From a virus, in the IMG/VR virus record IMGVR_UViG_3300035696_000755: a stretch of DNA of 10,079 nt; one strand, written 5' to 3'. The notes beneath the pieces are model-generated. The model ran no database searches. It saw nothing but the letters and a program-made list of their open reading frames with translations, and was not told where the DNA came from. Position numbers and translations under genes: made by a program. Positions 544-3,060 of this stretch are shown one piece after another (positions within the stretch are counted from its first letter, which is position 1; each line of letters starts with the position of its first letter).

Positions 544-3060
544 ATGCAGCTTGGAACCCAAGGCACCGACGCAAAGATTGCTGGAAATGCTTCCGCACCA
601 TCCAGCTTCAAGATTGCAGCCTCTACCGTCACCTTCGAAATCCTGTCCAGCGGCTTGTACGGCGATAAAGTTGGAGCCGTTATCCGCGAACTGTCCTGCA
701 ATGCATGGGACGCTCATGTGGCGGCTGGCAAGCCCTACGAGCCCTTCGAGATTAACCTTCCCACCCAGTTCAATCCCATCTTCACCGTCAAGGACTACGG
801 CACCGGCCTCAAGTTCGTTAAGGGCGGATGTGAGACCTGCCACGGCACTGGCAAGCTGGCTGCTGACATTGCTTGCGACGACTGCAACGGCACGGGCGAC
901 TATGACGGCGTGATGAGCCTCTACTGCACCTACTTTGCCTCGAACAAGAACCAGAGCAATGAGTTCATCGGTGCTCTCGGTCTTGGCTCCAAATCGCCCT
1001 TCGCCTACACCAACAAGAAGGCTGGCGATGGCTCTACACAGTCGGGCGGCTTCACGGTCACCAATCGCTACAACGGTCGCACCTACATCTACACAGCCAT
1101 GGTCAAGAATGGATTCCCGACCGTGGTTCCGATGCAGGTACTCGACACGCCGGGTACTCCGAACGGTCTGGAAGTTTCCTTCCCGGTTGACCGTCGCGAC
1201 ATTTGGGAGTTCGAGAACAAGGCTGCGAACGTTTTCGAGTTTTTCCAACCGCGTCCGAAGTTGAACAAGCCCATCACTATCAGAACGCCCACCTACTCGG
1301 TGAAGACTGCTCAGTGGGGTATGCGTACCGATGAGGATACCGCACAAGGCGATGGTCTCCGGGCGATTCAAGGCAACGTGCCCTACAGCGTCGGCAACAT
1401 CGACCAGAGCCGCTTGAGTGAGGCTCAGAAGAAGCTGGTCTCAATGCCCATCGACCTGTTCTTCAACATTGGAGAACTGAGCGTGGCCGCATCACGCGAG
1501 GCTCTGCAACTGGACGACAAGACCATTGGCAACATCTTGGGACGGTTGGACGTTGTGCAGGAGAAGCTTCTGGAGGAAGTCAAGAAGAAGGTTGATGCTT
1601 GCAAGACAGCGTGGGAAGCACGGCTCAAGATTCACGAGTTGACCATGCAGACCGGCATGGGCAGTCTGGTCAACGACGCCTACAACCGTGGGTTGCTGAA
1701 TGGCAAGTACAGCTTCTTCAAGCTGGAGGGAGATTCCAAGACGGTTGGCGGGTTCAAGGTGGTTGTCAACGAACTTGACTACTTGCACGTTGAACTGCTC
1801 TCCTTCCGCTACTGCGACCGCCGCAATGCGAAGAAGTCGAAGAAGGAACCTGTCTTCGAGTTCGCAACCCCCACCAAGAGGGCACAGGCTCATCGCGATT
1901 TGGGCTCGAACATCACCGAGAAGAAAGACTACGACATCAAGCTGGACGTGAGCGAGAACGTAATCTTCGTGATTAACGACCTCAGAACCAATGCTGACAA
2001 GTACGTCAGCTACATGCTCCAGAACGACGACAGGAGCAACACCTACCGCACGGATGCAGCGGGTAATGTTCGCCGCAAGGCATTGGTGATTAACCGGCTG
2101 CGTCGTAACAGCGATATGGTGCTGGCAGGTAACGAGGCTGTCGCCATGCTCGACCGCATCGGCAACCCCCCGGTGGTCAAGGCATCCGACCTCAAGGCAG
2201 CATTCGACCCGCTGATGAAGGCTGAGAAGGCAGTACAGGTTGTCAAGCGTGAACGGATGAACGTTCGTCTCCTGCGTCGGTATGCTGAGCACACTCGGCG
2301 TAGCTCGGGCGGTGGCTGGAAGAAGCAGTGGAGAAACGGTGACGACAACGAGACGCTCAACGACCCCACGGCGACCAAGTTCTACGTGCTGATTACTGGG
2401 CACCCGACCTTTGAACCCACCAACCTGCCGGGATTCTACTATGGCAGCAACTTCATCGCTTTCGTGAACAAGGTCCGCGATTCCAACCTGTTCCCGGAGA
2501 TTGGCGAAAGCACCCCGGTGTTCGGCATCAAGGCTGGCTCCAAGCTGCTCTCAGACCCACTCTTTGTGGAGTTCCTGCCCTTCGTGAAGGCTCGGGTAGC
2601 CACGACCATCACCCCGGCTAAGGAAATGGAACTGAGCCTCGCTGTGAAGCCGTTCTCTTCGAACTGGAAGAGCATCATGGAGTACGTGGCTGAGCATCCT
2701 CAACTGCTGACAGTGGACAGCCCGTTCCGCCAGTTCTCGCTGGCAATCTACAAGGCGGAACACGCCGACCGGGATGGCCACAGCAATCTGGTAACCCTCG
2801 CCAACGCACTGGGGATTGCCATCAACAACACCGCCGACTACAATCAGGCATGGGCAAAGGTGATAAAAAATTACCCAATCCTGAAAATTTGTAACCGAAA
2901 CACCTACGGTTCTGGTACACTGGAAGAGAAGACTGTTCTGGTGGACTACATCCGGCACACTGATGAGCAGAACAAACGGTTGGTTCTGTCCGATGTCCGA
3001 GTGGTAACCGACGAAACCGCAACCGAGACCGAAGATGAAGAGGAGACCGTCAATGTCTAA
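544..3060 (+). CDS. GHKL (Bergerat-fold, Hsp90/MutL/TopoVI-B/His-kinase type) ATPase, 838 aa, with a double CxxCxGxG zinc-knuckle insertion in the ATP-lid. The large C-terminal region is unassigned.
   Basis: N-box IRELSCNAWDA (nt 682-714) fits ExxxNAxDA. G1 box VKDYGTGL (787-810) fits DxGxG. G2 box GALGLGSKSPFAY (970-1008) fits GxxGxGxxS. CETCHGTG and CDDCNGTG (829-852, 874-897) lie between G1 and G2. The RBS GGAGAG is 10 nt upstream of the ATG. The protein ends in an acidic tail (TETEDEEETVNV). Confidence 0.75.
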   Translation: MQLGTQGTDAKIAGNASAPSSFKIAASTVTFEILSSGLYGDKVGAVIRELSCNAWDAHVAAGKPYEPFEINLPTQFNPIFTVKDYGTGLKFVKGGCETCHGTGKLAADIACDDCNGTGDYDGVMSLYCTYFASNKNQSNEFIGALGLGSKSPFAYTNKKAGDGSTQSGGFTVTNRYNGRTYIYTAMVKNGFPTVVPMQVLDTPGTPNGLEVSFPVDRRDIWEFENKAANVFEFFQPRPKLNKPITIRTPTYSVKTAQWGMRTDEDTAQGDGLRAIQGNVPYSVGNIDQSRLSEAQKKLVSMPIDLFFNIGELSVAASREALQLDDKTIGNILGRLDVVQEKLLEEVKKKVDACKTAWEARLKIHELTMQTGMGSLVNDAYNRGLLNGKYSFFKLEGDSKTVGGFKVVVNELDYLHVELLSFRYCDRRNAKKSKKEPVFEFATPTKRAQAHRDLGSNITEKKDYDIKLDVSENVIFVINDLRTNADKYVSYMLQNDDRSNTYRTDAAGNVRRKALVINRLRRNSDMVLAGNEAVAMLDRIGNPPVVKASDLKAAFDPLMKAEKAVQVVKRERMNVRLLRRYAEHTRRSSGGGWKKQWRNGDDNETLNDPTATKFYVLITGHPTFEPTNLPGFYYGSNFIAFVNKVRDSNLFPEIGESTPVFGIKAGSKLLSDPLFVEFLPFVKARVATTITPAKEMELSLAVKPFSSNWKSIMEYVAEHPQLLTVDSPFRQFSLAIYKAEHADRDGHSNLVTLANALGIAINNTADYNQAWAKVIKNYPILKICNRNTYGSGTLEEKTVLVDYIRHTDEQNKRLVLSDVRVVTDETATETEDEEETVNV

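Follow-up and report, generated by a model that had tools for sequence, protein, structure and literature searches.

The rIIA and rIIB genes are among the most famous in genetics. T4-type RIIA, acting together with RIIB, guards the phage against RexAB exclusion and has been linked to lysis inhibition, and both genes are now viewed as encoding anti-defence factors that overcome RexAB, with RIIB also triggering a bacterial gasdermin system (PMC10312443; PMC13434031; bioRxiv 10.1101/2025.10.21.683753). The N-terminus of rIIA has already been described as a GHKL domain (PMC7824862). Here we analyzed a stretch of viral DNA of 10,079 nucleotides (IMG/VR virus record IMGVR_UViG_3300035696_000755), referred to below as the window, in which an rIIA homologue carries a 30-residue insertion with four motif cysteines (Cys4) directly after the G1 box of its ATPase domain, a feature that sets it apart from T4-type RIIA. 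The finding is a rare, lineage-specific zinc-knuckle variant of the phage rIIA ATPase and not a new system; the insertion was not described in the literature surveyed on rIIA in connection with zinc, Hsp90 or GHKL.

The rIIA homologue and its ATPase domain

544-3060, + strand: rIIA homologue of 838 amino acids, with an N-terminal GHKL/Hsp90-like ATPase domain and a transducer/middle domain, a variable C-terminal region and an acidic tail
3053-4318, + strand: rIIB homologue (PHROG 609/3803/11221 'RIIB', E 2.9e-59), adjoining rIIA downstream

The open reading frame (ORF) at 544-3060 has an AGGAG ribosome-binding site upstream and matched PHROG 612, labelled 'RIIA lysis inhibitor', with an E-value of 2.8e-108; it was also matched by five further RIIA-labelled PHROGs and by phrog_609, whose label is RIIB. 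Its likeness to T4-type RIIA extends over the full length in profile and fold comparisons, and the same N, G1 and G2 signatures (…RELxxNxxDA…, DxGxG and GxxGLGSKSPF) are found in both. A Foldseek search of BFVD returned RIIA proteins as the top viral-model matches (best E 1.8e-41), including those of KVP40, 44RR2.8t and RB43 among others, with E-values from 1.8e-41 to 1e-18 over approximately 850-900 columns. Using the protein as tblastn query, rIIA genes were recovered in 2,866 phage records, with an identity below 60% in all of them and below 40% among the matches listed. Judged by these comparisons the ORF is a distant homologue of phage rIIA, an identity which had escaped a preliminary description of this DNA made from the letters alone and which is now evident from the PHROG 612 match and the adjacency of rIIB. 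A scan against NCBIfam gave no match for rIIA or rIIB, and all the relatives are annotated as 'hypothetical protein' in their source records.

As in T4-type phages, rIIB lies directly downstream of rIIA with overlapping start and stop. In the window the likely ATG of rIIB, at 3053, probably overlaps the rIIA stop, by 8 nt (ATGTCTAA; sequence 3040-3060), and a GAGGAG lies 7-13 nt upstream of this start, an arrangement that suggests translational coupling. Two relatives, L089 and L090, show the identical 8-nt overlap and a neighbour matching Pfam Phage_T4_rIIB, while the closest relative, P0001 (79% identity), belongs to a syntenic rIIA-rIIB-Ku-…-R2K ATP-grasp block present on metagenomic contigs of 12.6 kb and 40.8 kb. 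Further relatives were found on contigs of 300-340 kb, a size that suggests jumbo phages.

The three sequence motifs of the ATPase domain are the following.

682-717, + strand: N box (motif I), IRELSCNAWDAH, residues 47-58, aligning to RELISNGSDA of TRAP1
793-810, + strand: G1 box (motif II), DYGTGL, residues 84-89, aligning to DTGVGM of TRAP1
970-993, + strand: G2 box (motif III), GALGLGSK, residues 143-150, aligning to GQFGVGFYS of TRAP1

These assignments were made with a family profile (A1) built from an alignment of 121 homologues, which matched TRAP1, the mitochondrial Hsp90, with an E-value of 8e-8; a single-sequence search of PDB sequences gave no match, so that TRAP1 was reached by the family profile only. 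The profile alignment pairs RELsCNAyDA with RELISNGSDA in the N box, ikDfGtGL with IQDTGVGM in G1 and GalGLGSKSPF with GQFGVGFYSAF in G2. Throughout the 121 homologues R48, E49, N53 and D56 of the N box are invariant, as are D84, G86 and G88 of G1 and G143, G146, G148, S149 and K150 of G2; E49, N53 and D56 are predicted to serve as general base and as Mg/ATP ligands, and the roles of the G1 aspartate, of the glycines and of the next hydrophobic residue can be read from MORC2 (PMC5811534). At the level of fold the protein matched Hsp90, topo II, MutL and MORC, the nearest matches of the whole protein being TRAP1 and GRP94, and a Bergerat fold is followed by a transducer/middle domain. The preliminary description had proposed a Bergerat-fold ATPase and had placed the N, G1 and G2 boxes where we find them; given the TRAP1 alignment and the invariant residues, these placements are correct, and the domain has the appearance of an intact Hsp90-type GHKL ATPase, ATP hydrolysis itself being predicted.

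A further segment deserves mention here. At 1474-1515 of the window (residues 311-324 of rIIA, ELSVAASREALQLD), S317, R318 and E319 are invariant and L321 is nearly so in the 121 homologues. The string S317-R318-E319-x-L321-Q resembles, at the level of sequence, SRExLQ, the catalytic-loop motif of the Hsp90 middle domain, in the loop carrying Arg380. The role of this arginine in the Hsp90 middle domain has been described (PMC4980810). The resemblance suggests that the likeness of rIIA is to Hsp90 in particular and not to GHKL proteins in general, which fits TRAP1 and GRP94 being the top matches. The Hsp90 family (TRAP1, GRP94, HtpG) has the N-terminal and middle domains in common with rIIA, but rIIA is devoid of the charged linker, the G1-to-G2 lid region of basal rIIA is much shorter than that of Hsp90, and the C-terminal part is specific to rIIA. 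We know of no Hsp90 with a zinc module after G1.

The cysteine module after the G1 box

811-900, + strand: 30-residue insertion, residues 90-119 (KFVKGGCETCHGTGKLAADIACDDCNGTGD), a predicted single-zinc knuckle-pair module that is absent from basal rIIA
829-852, + strand: first knuckle, CETCHGTG, residues 96-103 (C96, C99); among homologues with this module (Zn-type) C96 is invariant and C99 at least 90% conserved
874-897, + strand: second knuckle, CDDCNGTG, residues 111-118 (C111, C114), both cysteines invariant, followed by a conserved D-Y-D
901-969, + strand: retained lid elements, residues 120-142: helix VMSLYC plus the loop TYFASNKNQSNEFI, which runs up to G2; the homologous stretch in basal rIIA reads SHEQVLSLYCTYFASDKTNDNSVI

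In-frame translation of 829-1008 (+), inside the rIIA ORF, gives CETCHGTGKLAADIACDDCNGTGDYDGVMSLYCTYFASNKNQSNEFIGALGLGSKSPFAY, and the order of motifs along the protein is DYGTG (residues 84-88), two copies of C-x2-C-x-G-x-G, and GALGLGSK (residues 143-150). The two copies that had been reported between G1 and G2 are thus exact in the translation, and their likeness to the DnaJ zinc repeat holds at the profile level (see below); their spacing, given earlier as about 20 residues, is instead 15 residues from start to start, with 7 residues between the motifs. The remaining cysteines of the protein (52, 128, 353, 424 and 783) lie outside C-x2-C-x-G-x-G motifs. From the composition of the protein 5e-4 such motifs per protein would be predicted, and among 200,000 shuffled sequences one motif appeared in 91 and two motifs in 0, so the pair is not due to chance.

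The insertion begins directly after L89, the end of DYGTGL. In most rIIA proteins the segment from G1 to G2 is 38 residues long (e.g. DFGPGMSHEQVLSLYCTYFASDKTNDNSVIGAFGLGSK), a form that 70 of the 121 close homologues have, as do 78 of 80 IMG/VR loci and, among 124 further cluster representatives, 97, and the window protein consists here of the flanks of basal rIIA plus the 30 extra residues, 90-119. An AlphaFold2 model has predicted local distance difference test (pLDDT) values of 92-94 over residues 91-120 and a helix at residues 122-127, and DSSP assigns short strands to residues 91-92, 104-105, 109-110 and 120-121 of the model. Judged from the DSSP string only, strands 91-92 and 120-121 would pair as a stem, with 104-105 and 109-110 forming a hairpin; the module would then be a self-contained excursion, its N and C ends adjacent and its two CxxC knuckles flanking the predicted beta-hairpin.

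In GHKL proteins G1 serves as a flexible hinge of the lid, on which dimerisation depends (PMC5811534; PMC4980810), and in MORC2 the residue after G1 stacks on adenine and the lid proper (82-103) starts approximately 9 residues after G1 and ends at G2 (PMC5811534). By this definition the module lies inside the G1-G2 bracket but at the G1 hinge, shortly before the mobile lid loop starts, and not precisely in that loop as the preliminary description had it. Of the two options left open there, that the module replaces the lid or augments it, the second applies: the module adds to the lid region, while the helix at 122-127 and the loop to G2 are kept as in basal rIIA, so the lid is not replaced; its canonical elements are intact, and so are the ATPase motifs.

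The module is present in 32 of the 121 closest homologues, at identities of 35-81%. Across these 32 sequences C96, C111, C114 and D121 are invariant and C99, G95, G103, G118 and Y120 are conserved in at least 90%, giving the consensus L-x-[FY]-x-x-G-G-C-x2-C-x-G-x-G-x(n)-C-x2-C-x-G-T-G-D-Y-D-A-V. The spacing between the two CxxC pairs ranges from 9 to 31 residues and the hairpin sequence between them is poorly conserved, with the positions of the stem and of the zinc ligands fixed. When the window gene is compared with that of the 79%-identical L089, the differences at two Cys codons (TGT/TGC) and at several Gly codons are synonymous, a pattern consistent with purifying selection. A rough neighbour-joining (NJ) tree, for which the insertion was masked, splits the Zn-type sequences into at least 3-4 groups; their shared flanks would point to a single origin of the module followed by loss or recombination.

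To place the module within rIIA at large, residues 60-160 were searched against 1.84 billion cluster representatives, giving 5,062 matches at E <= 0.001. Only 17 of these are Zn-type, roughly 0.3% of rIIA clusters, a count which takes in one fragment without a recognisable G1 (P0126); all 17 outrank the first match without the module (E 1.8e-41 to 7.8e-20 vs 5.7e-17). Among the 40 best tblastn matches in cultured or complete phages the Zn-type insert was not seen, since the 76-residue lid query aligns to 47-53 residues only, and none of the 80 best IMG/VR rIIA loci has the module. A search of IMG/VR with a back-translated GTGDYDAV pattern gave 7 matches, none of them in rIIA, and a query of the phage collection with the isolated module gave only weak matches (E >= 0.07) and no rIIA. 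The best of the latter is a protein of LR756501.1, a 735-kb uncultured phage; it is an extremely acidic non-rIIA protein of 356 amino acids (2548-3618 of L001), with a single DnaJ-like module, CPKCEGTG-x9-CDACNGTG.

Among known zinc centres the closest resemblance is to DnaJ. A profile of the isolated module matched the cysteine-rich (CR) domain of E. coli DnaJ (1EXK) with an E-value of 1.8e-6, the best stretch being repeats 2 and 3, which presumably share zinc centre II across a hairpin. The Pfam family DnaJ_CXXCXGXG (PF00684) matched 11 of the 32 clade members at E <= 0.01, the best at 4e-5. The module profile also matched the zinc module of UvrA (E 2.4e-4) and anti-TRAP (E 8e-4 and 0.012), and one clade member matched the anti-TRAP family PF15777 with an E-value of 0.0055.

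The likenesses and differences can be set out system by system. The DnaJ CR domain (PF00684; 1EXK) and the rIIA module both consist of C-x2-C-x-G-x-G repeats, two of which flank a beta-hairpin and would share one zinc; however, DnaJ has four repeats and two centres, the rIIA module two repeats and one centre, and the CR domain sits between the glycine/phenylalanine-rich (G/F) region and the DnaJ C-terminal domains whereas the module sits within an ATPase loop. A Pfam scan of the window protein found no J domain, G/F region or DnaJ C-terminal domain. Since it has two repeats rather than four and is outside any DnaJ context, the module, as far as its sequence goes, resembles one DnaJ-type zinc centre and is not a DnaJ CR domain; the DnaJ-like zinc repeat proposed earlier stands as a profile match to 1EXK, but not as a CR domain, the repeats being two and the score below the PF00684 threshold. 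Anti-TRAP (PF15777; 2BX9, 3LCZ) likewise has a single Cys4 centre made of two closely spaced DnaJ-type motifs, in a zinc module that serves protein-protein recognition; unlike the rIIA module it is a free-standing, oligomeric protein of 53 residues and no insertion, and the similarity is marginal. In UvrA a CxxCxGxG…CxxCxG zinc hairpin is also inserted in a nucleotide-binding domain, a precedent for a zinc finger on an ATPase, although UvrA has an ABC fold and uses its module in DNA handling, and rIIA has a GHKL fold and an acidic module (net charge -3 in the window and -2.4 on average over the 32 sequences).

Other rIIA clades carry at least four non-cysteine insertion families just after G1 (P0018-P0031, P0060-P0069, P0129-P0244; loci L066 and L070). 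The alternative insertions at or near the site comprise one of approximately 40 residues beginning NPAAKYVF…, one of approximately 30 residues (SDEQIRG…GGLY), a module of approximately 70 residues and a 12-residue EEGEYPS…; in P0138 a different CxxC…CxxC ribbon occurs within another insertion type. Read from these alignments, the stretch after the rIIA G1 box is an insertion hot spot, occupied by different modules depending on the lineage.

Possible roles of the module

The reading we prefer, to which we give a probability of roughly 0.55, is that this rIIA bears after G1 a structural zinc finger acting as a lineage-specific partner surface, with both the binding of zinc and the functional role predicted from sequence. 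RIIA would be an Hsp90-like GHKL ATPase made together with RIIB, into which a 30-residue mini-domain has been inserted between L89, expected to stack on adenine, and the helix leading into the ATP lid. C96, C99, C111 and C114 would bind one structural Zn2+, as in DnaJ zinc centre II or the single anti-TRAP centre, and the metal would staple the base of a beta-hairpin finger projecting from the rim of the nucleotide pocket. This finger may present a lineage-specific surface to the other protomer of the ATP-closed dimer, to RIIB, or to a host defence or target protein; we favour a partner surface because the stem and the ligands are fixed, the hairpin is variable and unrelated insertions occupy the site or its vicinity elsewhere. 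Its position probably follows the nucleotide state through movements of the lid and hinge, since the G1 glycines are the lid hinge in GHKL enzymes, and this is the least supported step of the proposal. In Hsp90 and MORC2, lid and hinge movements couple ATP binding to N-terminal dimerisation (PMC4980810; PMC5811534).

Several points weigh against this reading. The window protein scores 19.8 bits (E 0.001) against PF00684, whose gathering threshold is 32.7, and the Cys patterns are irregular in two members of the clade (P0081 and P0112). The tetrahedral Cys4 zinc site is a prediction from the sequence, the place of the finger along the sequence is what suggests where it lies in three dimensions with respect to ATP site, lid and dimer interface, and any functional role of the module is conjecture.

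The insertion could, alternatively, be near-neutral, the knuckle merely contributing stability by letting a foreign hairpin fold without disturbing the ATPase, and having no specific role. That at least five unrelated types of insertion make the site a hot spot would agree with this, as would the rarity of the Zn type, its patchy placement in the rough NJ tree and the poor conservation of the hairpin sequence. We nevertheless consider it unlikely: the flanks (GGC and GTGDYDAV) have been kept over deep divergence and in several clades, the repeated elaboration of the site by independent clades suggests that it is used, and interaction surfaces typically combine a fixed scaffold with variable length.

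The location of a Cys4 centre with strictly conserved ligands directly after the G1 hinge could also point to a switch, in which the cysteines sense oxidants or zinc, and loss of zinc or formation of a disulfide alters the hinge and switches the ATPase. Hsp33, a chaperone in which a Cys4 zinc site acts as a redox switch, would be the model for it. No feature of the sequence separates a sensor from a structural site, however, and DnaJ-type CxxCxGxG centres are classically structural; moreover, approximately 99.7% of rIIA clusters are without the module, so that the module does not belong to the core mechanism, and Cys-free insertions occupy the same site in other clades. We regard a redox or zinc-release switch as improbable. 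The suggestion of the preliminary description that metal, redox state or a bound partner could act on the ATPase through the module is speculative.

Equally doubtful is a client-binding finger in the manner of DnaJ, one that would bind an unfolded or partner polypeptide and present it to an ATP-driven clamp. The whole protein is nearest to TRAP1 and GRP94 and the module profile nearest to the DnaJ CR domain and PF00684, which speaks for such a role, but the module amounts to half a CR domain with one centre, the other parts of DnaJ (J domain, G/F region and C-terminal domain) are absent from the protein, and the similarity is carried largely by the Cys/Gly motif. To our knowledge no chaperone activity is known for any rIIA, which also counts against this proposal. 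Finally, a nucleic-acid-binding zinc ribbon through which rIIA would contact DNA or RNA is very improbable and was largely rejected, on charge, for although the UvrA zinc module is the second-best PDB profile match and is likewise inserted in an ATPase domain, the modules are acidic and the hairpin has no conserved basic or aromatic positions.

More speculative still than the structural partner surface, and in our opinion a long shot, is a reading in which rIIA is a phage Hsp90-type clamp whose DnaJ-type zinc centre at the lid hinge is a nucleotide-gated or zinc/redox-gated handle capturing a host defence protein or RIIB. If true, no GHKL lid region would have been described before with a sensor or client-binding element built into it, and the module would offer a biochemical entry into the 70-year-old question of how the rII proteins act. 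Returning to the preferred reading, the hot spot after G1 would mark a hypervariable, probably partner-facing site that has been repeatedly re-engineered in evolution, and thus the likeliest place for a partner or target to bind; the zinc-bearing variant is a convenient experimental handle on rIIA.

Neighbouring genes and related contigs

4482-5465, + strand: Ku-like DNA-end-binding protein (Pfam Ku, E 2.9e-31; PHROG 4873), directly downstream of rIIB
6808-7608, + strand: R2K-clade ATP-grasp protein (PF14243, E 2.8e-13)
9127-9630, + strand: weak peptidyl-tRNA hydrolase match, PTH2-like (E 4.5e-5)

The rIIB homologue (3053-4318, +) includes a weak HTH_31-like segment, at residues 328-371 of the longer ORF that starts at 3035 (E 0.0036), and ends in a strongly acidic C-terminal tail (…DDTDEDEEEEWDEDDEF); the tail of rIIA is acidic too. 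The Ku-like gene downstream of rIIB is also found in the relatives L089 and L090. On a related contig, R2K ATP-grasp and PTH2-like genes stand alongside Tpt1 (PTS_2-RNA), a fragment resembling a tRNA synthetase and a peptidase M24, and the R2K/PTH2/Tpt1 neighbourhood is a gene set with a flavour of translation and RNA repair, typical of large phages. The phage-like contig L089 also encodes, at 19230-21779, an 849-residue protein resembling the major vault protein, with matches to Pfam MVP_shoulder and, weakly, Vault_3.

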